The translations under genes were made by a program, and so were the position numbers. A DNA stretch of 63,894 bases, counting the filler, from Candidatus Nezhaarchaeota archaeon WYZ-LMO8 (lineage in GTDB: Archaea; Thermoproteota; Methanomethylicia; Nezhaarchaeales; WYZ-LMO8), in the NCBI GenBank assembly GCA_004347965.1. It is 4 parts of 3 records of this genome, joined end to end, with 100 filler letters (N's around TTAATTAATTAA, not from the genome) between each part and the next. Parts side by side here need not be neighbours in the genome. Positions count along the whole stretch, not along the records: positions 1 to 18,894 come from QNVF01000002.1; 3 more parts are not named here. One strand, written 5' to 3'. The notes beneath the pieces are model-generated. The model saw only the letters and a program-made list of their open reading frames with translations. It was not told the origin of the DNA and did no database searches. Each line of letters begins with the position of its first letter. The first letter of the stretch is position 1. Below, in pieces: positions 3,845-58,139 of this stretch.

Positions 3845-4789
3845 ATGGATCCATCATTCGTCCTCTTGGTACTATTGGGAATCTTCGCTTTAATAGTGCT
3901 ACTGATAACTATAGGAGAGTGGTTCGAGGACATAGAGTCGGACATGGGTTCTCAAAGCAATCCAAATTCGCAGGTGCAGCTGGCACCTCAAGTGGGGGTC
4001 CTACATAGGCTCTTCAACAAGGCTATATCAGGCGAACCAGTGTCGCAGGGACTTAATGGCGTTATAGGAGCAACGCTCTTCACGATACTATGGTGGGGGC
4101 TTAAATGGCACCCAGTACTTGCTATAGCTATTGCAGCCGCTATAACAACGTTGTTTCACATGTCACTAGCAACAACAGCTCATGTAGGAAGAATAACGAG
4201 TGCAAACGTTTTTGGTCAACCTCTCTATTACGATGTAATCATAACTCAGTTGCCATTAATAGCCAGTCACGCCTTCATACTAACGTCAGCCCTAATAGCA
4301 GTCTCGTACCTCTTCTACAACGTTTTCTTCGCAACTATAACTATAGGTCCTGAGACGAGCATAACTCTTGGACAGTACTTAGGCTATCCAATAGCAATAC
4401 CCCTACTCGGTTTGCTCTTAGGTATAACAGCAGGTGCTATTGGTAGTTCGACTGGTGATGTGCACTATGGTGCTGAAAGAGAATTTCAACATGCACCTTA
4501 CGGAGAGGGGGTGCCTATGGGGCTTCATGGATACATCACGGTCAAGGCTGAGGTGGGCTATCGAATGAGCATGGATGTTGCATACTTCTGCGCTAAATAT
4601 GGGGGACCACTTACAGGCTTCACTTACGGAATGATAATACTACTAGACAACCTTCGGCTATTCATTGGAAACATCATGAATAACGTGGTGGTGAACGTCG
4701 CTATAGGTGCTACAATACTCGTCATCCTCATAATCTTCAACAGATACCTTGAGAGGTGGGCTAGAAATAAGTTTGGACCTTACAGTTAG
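3845..4789 (+). CDS. mtrE: H4MPT S-methyltransferase subunit E
   Basis: EDIESDMGSQSNPNSQVQLAPQ, HRLFNKAISGEP, AIGSSTGDVHYGAERE, FCAKYGGPLTG. Confidence 0.97.
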   Translation: MDPSFVLLVLLGIFALIVLLITIGEWFEDIESDMGSQSNPNSQVQLAPQVGVLHRLFNKAISGEPVSQGLNGVIGATLFTILWWGLKWHPVLAIAIAAAITTLFHMSLATTAHVGRITSANVFGQPLYYDVIITQLPLIASHAFILTSALIAVSYLFYNVFFATITIGPETSITLGQYLGYPIAIPLLGLLLGITAGAIGSSTGDVHYGAEREFQHAPYGEGVPMGLHGYITVKAEVGYRMSMDVAYFCAKYGGPLTGFTYGMIILLDNLRLFIGNIMNNVVVNVAIGATILVILIIFNRYLERWARNKFGPYS

Positions 4790-4798
4790 AGGTGATGA

Positions 4799-5602
4799 TT
4801 GATGATAGGTCTCGACGTCATGATAATCATATTAATTATGATAGCAGTAGGTGGGGTGCTGATATGTGCGGGAGTCTTCTTCATGCCTGTTGGTGGAGCA
4901 CCAGCAGCGATGAGCACAGCGACTGGAATAGCTACTGGATGCGAGATGATGGCCGCGGGGGCTGGCATAACCGGTCTCCTAATGTCAGCCGCACTCTATG
5001 GTCAACCATCGTACATAGTTATACTTAATGCTGGCATAAGCTCAGCTATAATGATGTGTATAACCATGCTTGTAGCAAACTTCATTGTAATCTTTGGTAA
5101 AGGAGTACCTCCAGCACTTGCAACAGTCGAGAAAGATCCGGTGACTAAGGAGAACGTTAAGCCATTTGTTACACCAGGAACTGTGGGTCATGGAGTTCCG
5201 ACAGCAAGCTACGTTAGTGGCTTCATAGGTGCCTTCCTTGGAGGGATTGGTGGAGCCTTAACCTTCATACCAATATTAAGGGTGGCACTAAGCATTAGTC
5301 AAGGGCAAACTTTAAATGTTAATGTACTACTCGGTGCTTTCACAGTTAATGCAGGGCATCAGCACGTCCCCCTCTTCGTTCTTGCAGGTATATGTGCTTT
5401 ATCCATGTACTTCATAAATGCAAACATAGCTGCTTACAGCATTAGAGGGGTTATAGAGGGCTGGTGGGATCCGAAGTTCAAGAGACTACCTAAAACTGCT
5501 ATAACATGCTTTGTAGCTTCACTGGTATTTGGTATGCTTGCCCTTCTATTACTGAACAGCGAAGCCTTCATAACCGTTTTGAAAATGGTGAGAGGTGGTT
5601 AG
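4799..5602 (+). CDS. mtrD: H4MPT S-methyltransferase subunit D (start may be ATG 4802)
   Basis: FMPVGGAPAAM, KDPVT, TPGTVGHGVPT, EGWWDPKFKRLP. Confidence 0.95.
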   Translation: MMIGLDVMIIILIMIAVGGVLICAGVFFMPVGGAPAAMSTATGIATGCEMMAAGAGITGLLMSAALYGQPSYIVILNAGISSAIMMCITMLVANFIVIFGKGVPPALATVEKDPVTKENVKPFVTPGTVGHGVPTASYVSGFIGAFLGGIGGALTFIPILRVALSISQGQTLNVNVLLGAFTVNAGHQHVPLFVLAGICALSMYFINANIAAYSIRGVIEGWWDPKFKRLPKTAITCFVASLVFGMLALLLLNSEAFITVLKMVRGG

Positions 5603-5603
5603 A

Positions 5604-6431
5604 ATGAGTGAAATTAAGAAGGTCACGATAGATCCCACCAAGCTAATGATCGTAGGCTTAGCATGCGGCTTAGTAGGAGCGTACTTAGGTGCTATTCGAA
5701 GTGAAGTTGCTGGATTATTAGCAGGTATACTGGCAGTACCGGTCATAGTTTGGGGTGCTGACACTGTTAGGAGAATAGCCAGCTATGGCTTAGGTACGGG
5801 TGTTCCATCTATTGGCAATTTATCGTCGAGTATGGGATTACTCGCTGCACTCGTTGGTTTAGCGTATCAACCAGTAATCGGAGTAATCCTTGCAGCTGTA
5901 GCAGGCGTAGTCTATGGAGCTTTCGTGGCTAGGTTCAAGATACTTGAGATACCAAGGCTTCCAAGGTACACAACTGAGTTAGCCATGGCAGCCAGTCTTG
6001 CCTTGATGTGCTTGGCTAGCTGTGTTATTGGTTACTACAATCCAATACCCGAATCAGGCTTCCTTGCCCCTACAAGCAACTTTGAGAACATCTTCAAAGC
6101 ACTCTTTGTAACAGGCTTTGTGGCAGCTATCTTCTGGATAACTAGCGTGGCTATGCTACATCCATTTAACGCCGGTCTTGGAGTAGGTGAAAGACAAGGC
6201 AGGACCTTGAAGATAGCAGTCGTTACAGGGGGCATGGCGTTAACACTAGCTGGAATAGCTAGAATAGGTTACTTAACCATATTTGGTGCATCAACACAGC
6301 TCTACATTGCCTACGCTACTTTAGCAGCTGGAGTAGTTGTGTGGGCAGGAGGGCTCGTAGCGTTTCTAAGAACAGCTATAAGAGAAGCTGCGAGTGCTGT
6401 ATGGACTGGTATACCTCCAAAGAAGAAGTAG
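5604..6431 (+). CDS. mtrC: H4MPT S-methyltransferase subunit C
   Basis: VWGADTVRRIASYGLGTGVPSIG, LHPFNAGLG; GAGGTG RBS before ATG 5604. Confidence 0.95.
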   Translation: MSEIKKVTIDPTKLMIVGLACGLVGAYLGAIRSEVAGLLAGILAVPVIVWGADTVRRIASYGLGTGVPSIGNLSSSMGLLAALVGLAYQPVIGVILAAVAGVVYGAFVARFKILEIPRLPRYTTELAMAASLALMCLASCVIGYYNPIPESGFLAPTSNFENIFKALFVTGFVAAIFWITSVAMLHPFNAGLGVGERQGRTLKIAVVTGGMALTLAGIARIGYLTIFGASTQLYIAYATLAAGVVVWAGGLVAFLRTAIREAASAVWTGIPPKKK

Positions 6432-6443
6432 GAGGTGTGAATC

Positions 6444-6812
6444 TTGTCGACCATAATAATATCGCCTGAGCTTAACGTGATACTCGATGCAGAGAACAAG
6501 ATAGTTGGTGAAGCTAGAACGGACGTTGCTATATTAGATGTCTCAGTGCTAGAAAAGAAGATAGCTGAACTAGAGTTATTAGCTGACGAACTCGTTAACT
6601 CGCTTAACCCGAAGACGGCTCCGTTAATCTCGACGAGACCAAGGAGAGAAGGTCTATACCTTAAAGCCGGATTTCTATCAAACATGGTTATGGGTTTCCT
6701 AATTGGTCTAGCAATATTTAGCTTAAGCGTAGTAACGTACTTTGCCTTAACAGGTCAGGTAGCTATGTTAAAAGAAATAATAAGCAAGTTTGTTCCCCCG
6801 TCTTTACCTTAA
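6444..6812 (+). CDS. mtrB: H4MPT S-methyltransferase subunit B
   Basis: ISPE.N..LD, LE..ADEL.NSLNP, P.REG.Y..AG..SN...GF.IGL; operon position. Confidence 0.9.
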   Translation: MSTIIISPELNVILDAENKIVGEARTDVAILDVSVLEKKIAELELLADELVNSLNPKTAPLISTRPRREGLYLKAGFLSNMVMGFLIGLAIFSLSVVTYFALTGQVAMLKEIISKFVPPSLP

Positions 6813-6824
6813 CGAGGTGAAAAA

Positions 6825-7598
6825 GTGGTTATGACAACCACTGAAAAAGATAAGGTTAAGGTTGAACCTGCGCCTGGCTGGCCAATAGCAACGGGAGATT
6901 ACGTAGTTGGAGACCCAAAAGGGTGCATCGCTATATGCACTTTAGCGTCTGAGGGAATTTATGCACCACTAGCAAAGCTACCTGGTGTCGCTATAGCAGG
7001 GCCATGTAAAACCGAGAACATTGGTCTGGAGAAGATAGTGGTTAACATAATATCGAATCCAAACATTAGGTTCTTAATAGTATGCGGAATCGAAGTAACA
7101 GGTCACGTAACGGGGGGATCATTTAAAGCTCTGTACGAGAACGGCGTAGACCCATCTACCAAGAAAATCAAGAACGCACCAGGGGCAATACCGTACGTTG
7201 AGCACTTGACTGTTGAGGCTGTTGAACGTTTTCAAAAGCAGGTACAATTTATAGATATGATAGGGATCGAGGACGTAGAGAGTATCAAGTTGAAGGTGGA
7301 AGAGCTAGTTGCGCAAGATCTGGGGGCCTATCCAGAGCCGCCACTCATATTAGAGCTTGAGAAGAAGGAGATTAGAGAGTTAGCAGTGCCCCTACCACCA
7401 TTAGCTCCCACAATCTTACCATCAATTTCAACGCTAGCAACACTTATAGACGACATTAAGTATAGGGTACAGTTAATAGGAAGGGAGAGAAGACTTACAA
7501 CAGCTGTAGGAACTATGAGAGCTTGGGGAATTATAGCTGGGATGGCACTAGCCTTAGCCATCCTTGGCTTATTAGCCATCATGTCCTTAATCTCATGA
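6825..7598 (+). CDS. mtrA: MtrA cobamide-binding domain fused to an MtrF-like stalk/TM helix
   Basis: GWP...GDY.VGDP, GPCKTENIGLEK, NPNIRFLIVCG.EV.GH (His ligand); C-terminus DDIKYRVQLIGRERRL is MtrF-like. Confidence 0.93.
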   Translation: MVMTTTEKDKVKVEPAPGWPIATGDYVVGDPKGCIAICTLASEGIYAPLAKLPGVAIAGPCKTENIGLEKIVVNIISNPNIRFLIVCGIEVTGHVTGGSFKALYENGVDPSTKKIKNAPGAIPYVEHLTVEAVERFQKQVQFIDMIGIEDVESIKLKVEELVAQDLGAYPEPPLILELEKKEIRELAVPLPPLAPTILPSISTLATLIDDIKYRVQLIGRERRLTTAVGTMRAWGIIAGMALALAILGLLAIMSLIS

Positions 7599-7617
7599 GG
7601 CTCTTGGGGTGCGTGAA

Positions 7618-7824
7618 ATGTCTAAAAGACCTAGAGAGGCTTATACGGCTGAAGTTGCCTACTTTGAGGCTAGGATTAACGATATAAAAACGAGGATCCA
7701 AATGATAGGAGAGAAGAATAGATTTGCAGCAGGTTTTTATGCAGGCTTCGTCAGGGGCTTCATGATTGGAGTAATAGTATCAATAGCACTACTTACGATA
7801 ATATTAACTATCCTCCCCCTATAA
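7618..7824 (+). CDS. Stand-alone Mtr stalk/TM subunit resembling the MtrA C-terminal anchor (occupies the mtrF position)
   Basis: EARINDIKTRIQMIGEKNRFAAGFYAGFVRGFMIG; GGGGTG RBS before ATG 7618. Confidence 0.8.
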   Translation: MSKRPREAYTAEVAYFEARINDIKTRIQMIGEKNRFAAGFYAGFVRGFMIGVIVSIALLTIILTILPL

Positions 7825-7835
7825 GAGGTGATGAT

Positions 7836-8066
7836 GTGTCATTGAAAAATGAAGAAGAAATTAAGATACCGATAGTCATAGCGCCGTCAGAGATCTCCCA
7901 ACTATACTCGAAACTTGATGCGATAGATGAGAAGGTAGACTTTGTGCTCGGCGAAGTAGCTCAGAAAGAAGGTTTAAGGTTGGGTGGTCACATAGGCTTC
8001 CTTTATGGCTTCCTAACAGGATCTATGATAATGCTGATACTAAAATTCTTACTTCACCTATTATGA
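7836..8066 (+). CDS. mtrG: H4MPT S-methyltransferase subunit G
   Basis: KLDAIDEKVDFVLGEVAQKEG..LG..IGFLYG. Confidence 0.92.
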   Translation: MSLKNEEEIKIPIVIAPSEISQLYSKLDAIDEKVDFVLGEVAQKEGLRLGGHIGFLYGFLTGSMIMLILKFLLHLL

Positions 8067-8170
8067 GCGTAATCAGTACAACTAATTGAGGAGACAATGC
8101 AAGTTTGACCTCATTTGTCTCGCATAATCTTGTTTATTTCTTCTTCATGGCTTCAAGTAAGACTTTGTGT

Positions 8171-9655
8171 TTACTGCTTCTTTCTATTCCTTTGAAGTTC
8201 TATTCTTAGACTCAGTATACAACCCATACCTCTGTTACCACCCAAAGGATTATGAGGGGTACCCAGTGAATGCATGCACCTTGCCATTACGTTAGCCCCT
8301 AAAGCTAAGCCATCTTCGACGAATACTACTCTTCTATTAATGTCGTCTTCAAACAATCCGAGGTCATGTACGCATTTAAGTATTAAGTATGGTTTTAAGC
8401 CCGTAGTTCCAGATCGACCAGTTATCCCTATGGTGTATTTGCTGTCCACCAGCCCCTCTCTCATTAGCACCTCTAGTACCCTTCTAACTATTATCGCTGA
8501 GACATAATCCAGTACGAGTAAAAGGGTGTTACCTCCAAATTGAGTGTAAATCTCTTGACCCAATGATCGGAGCTTAGGCAAGTTGCTTCCATTATCTCCA
8601 GCATCACATCCAATTAATACCACTCCTTGTTCATATGCCGACTTAGCATTGACTGGGACAGTGCCTATGCGTGTTGTGGATGGAGGAACCTTGTCTATGT
8701 TTATGTATTTGTGAACCTCATAAGCTAGCTCTTCACACTCCTTGATGCTCTTCACCTTCTCATGTTTAACCTTTTGAGAAAACTCTAAAGCTGATGTCGT
8801 TACCTGCGTACCTTGAATTAGTGAATCACAAATAGCTCCTGAAAGTCCGCATATACTCCCTATGGTCTTAGCGTAAGGCAACTCATCATTTGTAACCCTA
8901 CCCTTAAAAGTTGTTCCAAAGTCCATTGAGACCATGGGGTTTCTACAGTCAATGTCAGTCCACTTAGCTCCAATCTTTATACCAGCTGTTGAAAGCTCAG
9001 CCTCCATTTCATTAGCCATTATCTCTCCTCTGCTTCGAGGAGGTAGACAGCCGGCAACTGCTCCATCGAAGTAGACTTCGTCAAGCTTTGAGTAATCTCT
9101 CAATCTTTCGATCAAGAAATCCTTGGATAAAGGGGCAACCATTTTTGATGGATCTATACCGGCGATCAGACAGCCTCTGGCTAAACCTCTTATAACGGCT
9201 CCAACCTCTTCTGGACTTCCAAAGCTAGCACTTACTCCAGTAGATCGTACCACGAAGTGTAGATCTCTATCTTTGTCTATCTTAGCTTCCTCGACACAAG
9301 TCAGAAGTACATCTCTAATGAACTCAGCCACAGCTTCCTCGCTCAACACTTTACCCCATAAAGTAGAGCCTATGATCTGCTCGCCAGGTAAAGGATCTCT
9401 AATCTCTCTCGTAAGCCTAACAACTTTCCTAACTAAGTACACTTTCCCACTTTTAAGATCCGTAGCCGTTATGATGCACTTAGTGGTCGTGTTACCTAAC
9501 TCAACTGATGCAACAGTAAAAAGTGCGGGAGGCGATGATTGAGGACCTATTCCTTGGAGTAGCATTATGTTCGTGATATCGATGAACGTGCTTTGAGCAA
9601 TTCGAGGGTTATACCTGTTAAGCTTCCAAATCCTTGATAGCTTTGTTATCATCAC
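8171..9655 (-). CDS. Methanogenesis marker protein 14 (DUF2114)
   Basis: VASVELGNTTTKCI, FVVRSTGV, ANEMEAEL, MDFGTTFKG, DGLALGA.VMARCM.SLGTP.NPLGG. Confidence 0.9.
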   Translation of the reverse strand: MMITKLSRIWKLNRYNPRIAQSTFIDITNIMLLQGIGPQSSPPALFTVASVELGNTTTKCIITATDLKSGKVYLVRKVVRLTREIRDPLPGEQIIGSTLWGKVLSEEAVAEFIRDVLLTCVEEAKIDKDRDLHFVVRSTGVSASFGSPEEVGAVIRGLARGCLIAGIDPSKMVAPLSKDFLIERLRDYSKLDEVYFDGAVAGCLPPRSRGEIMANEMEAELSTAGIKIGAKWTDIDCRNPMVSMDFGTTFKGRVTNDELPYAKTIGSICGLSGAICDSLIQGTQVTTSALEFSQKVKHEKVKSIKECEELAYEVHKYINIDKVPPSTTRIGTVPVNAKSAYEQGVVLIGCDAGDNGSNLPKLRSLGQEIYTQFGGNTLLLVLDYVSAIIVRRVLEVLMREGLVDSKYTIGITGRSGTTGLKPYLILKCVHDLGLFEDDINRRVVFVEDGLALGANVMARCMHSLGTPHNPLGGNRGMGCILSLRIELQRNRKKQ

Positions 9656-9668
9656 TAAGTCCTCGTAT

Positions 9669-10625
9669 CTAACCTACAAGTCTCCGATAGGGGTGACCCT
9701 CACCGACAGCAAGCCCTAGTTCTAGGCTTGCCATGTCCGTTATTAAGGTATCAGTCATTGCTACCACTGGGAAGACGTACTCTGCGTTCTCTATCGGTCC
9801 ATAGAGGACGAAGTTACCTCCCACAATTACTTGAAGAGCGTTGCTAGCTATGTCGCAGAATCTGAATATCTCTCTCCCACTTGGATGCTCTTTCCTTAAC
9901 TTCTTAAGCCAGGGCCACGCTGAAACGACATTGTGTATCCCACTACCTGTTGGATAGCCAAATTTCGATTTAATAACGTAAGTTGATGCCAAGGCAGCCC
10001 CAGCACCAGACCCTAATGCTGTCGCTGCAACATCGATAAGTATCGCCTTAATACCACAATCCTTAGCCATTTCAAGGAGACCTTTCTTAACGATACCTCC
10101 TCCTGTTGTCAGTACTGCAACCTTACCTTTTATTGAGGGGTCGGTCGGATTGAAAGCTAAGACTATACTATTGGGGACTTTAAGCTCCATTAAGACTTTA
10201 AGCTCCTCCTCCGTTATCGAGGCATTTATTGAGTTGTAGATAGCTCGATCAATAAGCCCGACTTCCTCAGCGTACTTAGCGCCTTCAGCTCTAACCTTAG
10301 GCTCTGTAGAGTCTATCAGAAATGGTGAGTCGGTCACAGACGCGACAAAGTCTATGTACCTCTTCATAGCATCAACACTCTCTGAGAACACTTGAACCAT
10401 GGATGGATTACCAGTTATATCCGAGAGCTCTTCTTGCTTCTTTATCAGCGTCTCAGCTTTCTCTCTATCGAAAACGCCAGTTTTAGGGTCGCTTACTATT
10501 TTATGTCCTCCATAGAATATAGTTCCTGCAAGAACTGTAGGATTTTCACCTGGTTGTCCTCCAATCTTTATCTTCCCTACTTGGTAGACATACTGCTCTC
10601 TCGCAAATTTGAACATAATCTCCAC
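9669..10625 (-). CDS. mtrH: H4MPT S-methyltransferase subunit H
   Basis: MFKFAREQ, IGGQPGENPTVLAGTIFY, IYNSIN, GYPTGSGIHN, LYGPIENA. Confidence 0.95.
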   Translation of the reverse strand: MEIMFKFAREQYVYQVGKIKIGGQPGENPTVLAGTIFYGGHKIVSDPKTGVFDREKAETLIKKQEELSDITGNPSMVQVFSESVDAMKRYIDFVASVTDSPFLIDSTEPKVRAEGAKYAEEVGLIDRAIYNSINASITEEELKVLMELKVPNSIVLAFNPTDPSIKGKVAVLTTGGGIVKKGLLEMAKDCGIKAILIDVAATALGSGAGAALASTYVIKSKFGYPTGSGIHNVVSAWPWLKKLRKEHPSGREIFRFCDIASNALQVIVGGNFVLYGPIENAEYVFPVVAMTDTLITDMASLELGLAVGEGHPYRRLVG

Positions 10626-18894: not shown

Positions 18895-18994
18895 NNNNNN
18901 NNNNNNNNNNNNNNNNNNNNNNNNNNNNNNNNNNNNNNTTAATTAATTAANNNNNNNNNNNNNNNNNNNNNNNNNNNNNNNNNNNNNNNNNNNN
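18895..18994. other. Artificial contig linker
   Basis: N-run + TTAATTAATTAA (stops in all six frames) + N-run. Confidence 0.99.
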
Positions 18995-31256: not shown

Positions 31257-31356
31257 NNNNNNNNNNNNNNNNNNNNNNNNNNNNNNNNNNNNNNNNNNNN
31301 TTAATTAATTAANNNNNNNNNNNNNNNNNNNNNNNNNNNNNNNNNNNNNNNNNNNN
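31257..31356. other. Artificial contig linker
   Basis: N-run + TTAATTAATTAA + N-run. Confidence 0.99.
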
Positions 31357-58039: not shown

Positions 58040-58139
58040 NNNNNNNNNNNNNNNNNNNNNNNNNNNNNNNNNNNNNNNNNNNNTTAATTAATTAANNNNN
58101 NNNNNNNNNNNNNNNNNNNNNNNNNNNNNNNNNNNNNNN
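58040..58139. other. Artificial contig linker
   Basis: N-run + TTAATTAATTAA + N-run. Confidence 0.99.

Follow-up and report, generated by a model that had tools for sequence, protein, structure and literature searches.

The operon closest to the one analysed here was described by Mei et al. (2023, PNAS Nexus, PMC9982363), who in the sections cited here report the gene order EDCB[AF]FGH in a TACK clade, Methanoliparia and ANME-1, and treat the small gene behind the fusion as a duplicate or second mtrF. Wang et al. (2015, PMC4632066) described mtrA-2a (A-F) and mtrA-2b (A-G) in Methanococcales, Methanocella arvoryzae and Methanomicrobiales, and in the accessible text of that paper these A-F and A-G fusions are second copies beside a normal mtrA. 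Structural reference points come from the complexes of M. marburgensis and M. mazei. In the passages of Aziz et al. (PMC10998594) used here, the M. marburgensis MtrA core trimer is layered by Pro185, Ala188, Ala192, Asn196, Thr199 and Met203, His84 of MtrA is the cobalt ligand, and the N-termini of A and F sit in small beta-sheets atop the stalk. The corresponding passages on the M. mazei complex (PMC12774963) name Phe210 of MtrA as the seal residue and describe small beta-sheets atop the stalk formed by the N-termini of B, F and G, where MtrH docks.

We analysed a window, meaning the whole stretch of 63,894 nucleotides, from the genome of Candidatus Nezhaarchaeota archaeon WYZ-LMO8 (GCA_004347965.1). 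An initial annotation had proposed that the stalk helices of MtrA and MtrF are exchanged between two adjacent reading frames in this window. Both frames, and the peptides quoted from them, were located at 6825-7598 and 7618-7824, and the Methanothermobacter peptides given for comparison agree with the PDB chains. The mtr region comprises the following features:

3845..4789, + strand: mtrE (Pfam/TIGRFAM-type profile matches)
4799..5602, + strand: mtrD (profile matches)
5595..6431, + strand: mtrC (profile matches)
6444..6812, + strand: mtrB, a stalk helix and, in solved structures, the MtrH docking arm (profile matches)
6825..7598, + strand: mtrA-F fusion of 257 aa, with the genome's sole MtrA cobamide domain and an MtrF-type stalk/transmembrane helix
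6858..7373, + strand: MtrA cobamide-binding domain, residues 12-183 of the fusion (Pfam MtrA)
7374..7415, + strand: linker, Pro-rich, weakly acidic and predicted to be disordered (pLDDT under 50)
7416..7595, + strand: MtrF-type stalk, with Tyr at 199 and Arg at 206 and without Glu186, Arg193 and Gly217
7618..7824, + strand: free 68-aa MtrA-type stalk (ATG at 7618), whose homologs are called 'subunit F' in NCBI
7836..8066, + strand: mtrG, a stalk helix (profile matches)
8171..9655, - strand: methanogenesis marker 14 (DUF2114), downstream of mtrH (profile matches)
9669..10625, - strand: mtrH, on the opposite strand and convergent on the mtr operon (profile matches)

The cobamide domain of this Mtr complex is fused to an MtrF-type helix, and we consider it probable that the MtrA-type helix encoded by the next gene occupies MtrA's slot in the stalk core of an otherwise ordinary complex. 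Genes for MtrE, D, C, B, G and H and the MtrA cobamide domain are all present. The domain is matched with 227 bits (Pfam), and its His94 (codon 7104-7106), the counterpart of His84 in the 8q3v_A alignment, does not vary among 53 fusion proteins. In MtrE, the Na+ ligands Ser29, Glu61 and Asp187 and the CoM contacts Asn38 and Arg113 of 8q3v_E are matched by identical residues, and the complex thus keeps the cobalt-ligating His of MtrA together with the Na+ and CoM residues of MtrE. Profile and helix-type evidence bears out the proposal that all four stalk helices (A, B, F and G) are retained. A GGGGTG box lies 6 nt upstream of the 68-aa ORF's ATG at 7618.

The block of mtrH and marker 14 (8171-10625) is inverted relative to the operon and displaced from its end, as in other Nezhaarchaeal loci, and at three further loci both genes stand in line after mtrG. 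In five genomes of the window's genus, one of which (G151) shares its coordinates with the Nezhaarchaeales locus L006, the A-F fusion and the free stalk are retained together with mtrB and mtrG. The F tails of these genomes have diverged furthest, and MtrE was not found in the five assemblies (completeness 69-93%); loss of MtrCDE is reported for their family in the accessible part of a preprint (10.1101/2025.06.25.661132). Contigs of an RNA library cover 5500-8131 of the window; one stretch among them, 7577-7973, differs at 7 of 397 bases. Contigs of this kind are no proof of transcription. From three runs of raw reads, 0, 0 and 4 reads were obtained, with none on the fusion or the small gene. 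A promoter and terminator scan built for bacterial promoters returned hits at or below chance (6 versus 9.2 and 1 versus 3.6).

Judged by its sequence, the tail of the fusion sorts firmly as an MtrF-type helix. Residues 198-252 of the 257-aa ORF match MtrF with 49.2 bits (Pfam), and on its own the tail reaches 47.5 bits with TIGR02507 (MtrF) and 14.6 bits with TIGR01111 (MtrA). It passes the curated MtrF cut-offs of PF09472 (52.6; cut-off 22) and TIGR02507 (cut-off 25), stays under that of NF009776 (53.6 of 64), and carries the F-typical Tyr199 and Arg206. Only one of the six M. marburgensis core layers is matched, Tyr standing at 199, and Leu takes the seal position 210 (MtrA numbering). The fusion is thus not a canonical MtrA, a cobamide domain on an A-type anchor, since its tail scores F; nor is it an mtrA-2a, a second, gene-converted copy beside mtrA-1, since the genome holds one MtrA domain.

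The 68-aa ORF sorts as an MtrA stalk. It matches positions 184-238 of TIGR01111 with 46.6 bits versus 29.0 bits on TIGR02507 (MtrF), positions 184-236 of the M. marburgensis chain 8q3v_A with 39.1 bits versus 21.9 for 8q3v_F, and among other solved chains 9qtq_A with 33.3 and 9qtp_P (MtrF) with 17.3 bits. The proposed exchange of A and F helices therefore held on curated models as well as on solved chains. A-typical residues are present (Glu186, Arg193, Phe210, Tyr215 and Gly217 in M. marburgensis MtrA numbering), as are small core residues: Ala188, Ala192, Thr199 and Met203 are kept, four of the six M. marburgensis core layers, a match that is suggestive only because Thr199 and Met203 vary among canonical MtrA. 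At 199, the free ORFs of ANME-1 type carry Lys, His or Arg. Assignment to MtrF fails on the higher scores against MtrA C-termini and on Thr199 and Glu206, where MtrF has Tyr and Arg. The ORF nevertheless passes MtrF cut-offs weakly (27.7 bits on Pfam MtrF) and is intermediate: F models give it about 29 bits, and the domain-less A stalks of Methanococci about 12. To a profile of its own family, M. marburgensis MtrF (38.9) is a better match than M. mazei MtrA (35.7). It is A-like yet near the A/F ancestor, and both a true A stalk and an early F duplicate would fit its sequence.

To follow the exchange across lineages, mtr loci were gathered from TACK, Halobacteriota, Methanobacteria, Methanococci and Methanopyri, and every A/F-family helix was cut out. 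Cross-test profiles were trained on Methanobacteria and Methanosarcinales, for both of which cryo-EM structures exist, with helices labelled by their position in canonical operons. When the profiles of either group were applied to the other, 182/182 helices were sorted correctly (91 operons, which are kin and not independent). For broader canonical profiles (51 A and 61 F rows), TACK, the swapped Halobacteriota and 16 odd Methanococci loci were excluded. On these, the window's small ORF scores 67.0 for A and 28.9 for F, and its tail 19.7 for A and 55.8 for F. All 13 database homologs of the small ORF also score A on them; six of the 13 carry a source name, in every case 'subunit F'. Within TACK, 17/17 distinct free ORFs score A and 17/17 distinct tails score F (0/17 A), so that the exchange seen in the window extends over the TACK mtr operons surveyed. 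The 35 distinct free ORFs of ANME-1-type Halobacteriota all score A; that set was chosen by its F-type tail, and only its free-ORF count therefore serves as a test.

Diagnostic residues gave the same division. Canonical A helices (M. marburgensis numbering) carry Glu186 in 25/26, Arg193 in 24/26, Gly217 in 26/26 and Tyr215 in 21/26 sequences, and canonical F helices Tyr199 in 22/24 and Arg206 in 24/24. The TACK free ORFs have Glu186, Arg193 and Gly217 (7/7 each) and Tyr215 (6/7), and the TACK tails Tyr199 (6/7) and Arg206 (7/7). F-like residues also occur in the TACK free ORFs, namely Arg200 (7/7) and Gln202 (5/7).

The window's operon is of the EDCB[AF]FGH type, with the fusion, a small A/F-family gene, mtrG, and an MtrA domain that falls in the TACK/ANME-1 clade. 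In a tree of 77 MtrA domains, all 28 swapped rows from TACK and Halobacteriota form one branch (SH-aLRT 93, quick search). Named fusion proteins include those of Nezhaarchaeota, Bathyarchaeota, Hecatella, Methanomethylicota and ANME-1. Thermoprotei and Ca. Nezhaarchaeales MAGs are the closest relatives that carry a name. Given the single branch and these named fusions, the swapped layout is the norm of a large clade. Many swapped Halobacteriota loci are 79-100% identical to named ANME-1/Methanophagales proteins, and two subgroups are at about 60% identity to named proteins; Methanoliparia were not identified among the swapped Halobacteriota loci collected.

Two histories of the small gene were weighed with helix trees, every one of which is limited by about 65 alignment columns. 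An unrooted tree (88 rows by 65 columns, LG+G4) separates canonical F with all fused tails from canonical A tails with all free ORFs at 99/99 support. Rooting with 14 MtrG rows (54 rows, mixture model) gave an F clade at 97/90 and a clade of A plus free ORFs at 92/33. The best surviving alternative follows the label of Mei et al., namely that the small gene is a very old mtrF duplicate brought into the MtrA slot by convergence or gene conversion; the complex would work in the same way and only its history would differ. The MtrG-rooted AU test leaves room for this, rejecting neither a clade of all F including the free ORFs (p 0.36) nor one of TACK free with TACK fused helices (p 0.15), and the F-like residues at 200 and 202 and the raised F scores of the free ORFs point the same way. 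We nevertheless regard it as unlikely. The best trees place the small gene on the A side, a duplication inside the TACK/ANME-1 lineage, with its free and fused helices forced together, is rejected in the larger set (p 0.016), and convergence would need Glu186, Arg193, Tyr215 and Gly217 to have arisen all together.

Far less probable is that gene order reads the functions correctly, with the F-like fused helix in the core A slot and the free helix in the F slot. The A and F helices are paralogues that align without gaps, and the whole 257-aa ORF just exceeds the cut-off of the full-length MtrA model (TIGR01111, 251.6 versus 249.15), both of which would allow such a reading. Forcing canonical A with the fused tails, as gene-order labelling requires, is however rejected (AU p 0.008), in agreement with the stalk-only split, and no TACK tail scores A. 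The tail would moreover bring Tyr onto a core layer and Leu to the seal, where the free ORF offers small residues and Phe.

A parallel to the MtrA-type free helix was found in Methanococci. Among 30 loci, 13 are canonical, eight have two cobamide domains (A-A, then A-F), seven carry a domain-less A stalk (106-127 aa) immediately behind mtrB and then an A-F fusion, and two have the A-F fusion alone. One MtrA domain was found in each of the four tested genomes with a domain-less A stalk and A-F. The MtrA domains and helices of these loci nest among Methanococci in the domain and helix trees, and the fusion therefore has a separate origin there; the gene order is opposite to that of TACK. The case suggests that the A stalk is kept once its domain is lost. 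The records are titled Methanothermococcus; we take the organisms to belong possibly to the genus Methanofervidicoccus, and no paper on Methanofervidicoccus mtr was found in the open-access literature.

Further observations concern the linker and layout of these and neighbouring groups. At 12 Methanococci loci with a domain-less A stalk upstream of A-F, the stalk keeps its acidic linker and reads NPGA where full MtrA reads DPGA, and the linker of the A-F fusion is shorter (median 24 residues). DPGA of MtrA is the Connectase site (PMC7980362), and Connectase is present in three of the four tested genomes with this layout; that it moves the B12 domain onto the free stalk in Methanococci is speculation. 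In the window, the conserved motif is DLGA, at about 7314-7328 (likewise in one other protein, P0030). A role for Connectase in the window genome is rejected for now, as a search of this 93%-complete assembly found no PF09894 and the window motif reads QDLGA. At eight Methanopyri loci, MtrA with its own stalk is followed directly by mtrG, and mtrF lies outside the operon in 3/3 genomes checked.

The genome of the window (93.4% complete, 78 contigs) contains mcrA, and a search of all of it returned one MtrA domain and two A/F-type stalk helices. The fusion is thus the sole cobamide subunit, as proposed, and no other full-length mtrA was found in this assembly. The two Methanococci assemblies with an A-F fusion and no A stalk in the operon are L191 (G815) and L207 (G850). 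In G850, the A stalk lies on a 513-base contig, which makes an assembly collapse likely; no A stalk was found in a search of the G815 assembly. A true layout of A-F without an A stalk was set aside as a probable collapse of near-identical copies, on the evidence of G850. These two assemblies, and a genome that is 93% complete in 78 contigs, would be the grounds for taking the small ORF as a dispensable remnant beside a stalk of three helix types, or for placing a canonical mtrA in an unassembled part of the genome, the least probable readings of all, as the ORF is conserved over 45 other loci (31-87% identity, five invariant residues), four further TACK genomes (93-100% complete) each have the same two helices only, and one of the two Methanococci cases points to collapse. 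A frameshift or assembly artefact was rejected because the identical stop and restart recur in 17 distinct TACK sequences and the operon lies whole in an unbroken part of its contig, clear of the N spacers at 18895-18994, 31257-31356 and 58040-58139.

The initial annotation had also held that a Pro-rich linker replaces the usual acidic one, and this stands in part. Counted from the PGA-type motif up to where the helix begins, the linker is 31-33 residues long in TACK fusions (17 distinct sequences; median 5 Asp/Glu, 7 Pro, 0 Gly); Methanobacteria have 28-29 (25 sequences; 12 Asp/Glu, 2 Pro) and canonical Halobacteriota a median of 28 (94 sequences; 7 Asp/Glu). The linker is indeed less acidic and richer in Pro, but the Pro-rich stretch is partly MtrF's own N-terminus, its distal part aligning with the N-terminal segment of ordinary MtrF. 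An AlphaFold2 model of the fusion (53 rows, mean pLDDT 87.9) has a confident domain and one helix at 199-254, and pLDDT falls under 50 at model residues 178-195, as would be expected for a mobile arm. Because N-termini meet in beta-sheets atop the stalk, those of A and F in M. marburgensis and those of B, F and G in M. mazei, a tether on F instead of A would probably be only slightly displaced in space, by analogy with the solved complexes.

With the free helix likely in the A slot of the complex, to judge from its residues, a working model can be drawn by reference to the M. marburgensis and M. mazei complexes. In it, the free helix, present three times, would make up the three-helix core at the centre of the cytoplasmic stalk as well as the Phe seal, with the B, F and G helices around it. 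MtrH would take the methyl group off methyl-H4MPT and load it onto the cobamide (His94), and the B12 domain would swing between MtrH and MtrCDE on a disordered linker of similar length. The arm would be anchored to a peripheral helix that has its N-terminus among the small beta-sheets atop the stalk. Methyl-cobamide would then deliver its group to coenzyme M at MtrCDE, chemistry and Na+ coupling being unchanged. The arrangement probably passed through an intermediate with two cobamide domains, one per helix, one of which was then lost.

A wider scheme can be entertained tentatively, and we think it doubtful as a whole. The B12 arm of Mtr would be a movable module on four fixed stalk helices. 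Most euryarchaeotes would carry it on A and the entire TACK/ANME-1 branch on F, and in a subgroup of Methanococci it would have gone to F a second time, leaving each time a free A stalk as an unrecognised ninth type of Mtr polypeptide. Since the published root of MtrAH divides the two layouts, the pump could originally have been F-tethered, and a peripheral tether beside the MtrH docking sheet could alter the geometry of the swing in lineages that run the pump backwards.

The swapped layout implies no new chemistry. It predicts that every stalk helix is indispensable and the attachment point of the arm flexible. It corrects the reading of the deep-branching Mtr type of Nezhaarchaeal methanogens, Hecatellales and ANME-1, and it bears on phylogenetics: concatenated MtrA or MtrF alignments based on gene order mix paralogous helices. 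Databases are inconsistent, labelling such genes A or F. The novelty claimed initially holds for one part only. The A-F fusion is already published for the whole lineage in the cited sections of Mei et al. (PMC9982363), and what is new is to read the small gene as an MtrA stalk, one with core and seal residues of MtrA that likely takes its slot, a reading that we did not find in the accessible text of open-access papers, the literature covered. The swap is not mentioned in the accessible parts of 10.1101/2025.06.25.661132, 10.1101/2021.08.02.454722 and 10.64898/2026.07.03.736320, and the supplement of PMC9635834 has no match for MtrF or the fusion and no mention of the swap. The relabelled gene and the parallel Methanococci case are modest additions.

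Set against the systems described so far, the window has the same operon, in the same lineages, as the TACK type of Mei et al., with the A-F fusion as the operon's only MtrA in the sections cited. It departs from their label for the small gene, which profiles, diagnostic residues and the best trees all assign to the MtrA-type stalks. With mtrA-2a and mtrA-2b, as the accessible text of Wang et al. presents them, it shares an MtrA domain fused to another stalk helix, but here there is no normal mtrA and the A stalk is free and downstream of the fusion. All eight subunit types are shared with the canonical Mtr of M. marburgensis (8Q3V, PMC10998594) and M. mazei (9QTQ, PMC12774963), as are, within the parts of those reports used here, the His ligand, the Na+ and CoM residues of MtrE, the four stalk helices and a disordered linker. 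The window's linker differs in having fewer Asp/Glu and no Gly, and its mtrH lies on the opposite strand. The main difference lies in the tether: the cobamide domain is carried here on F, which is peripheral in the solved structures, and there on the core A helix.
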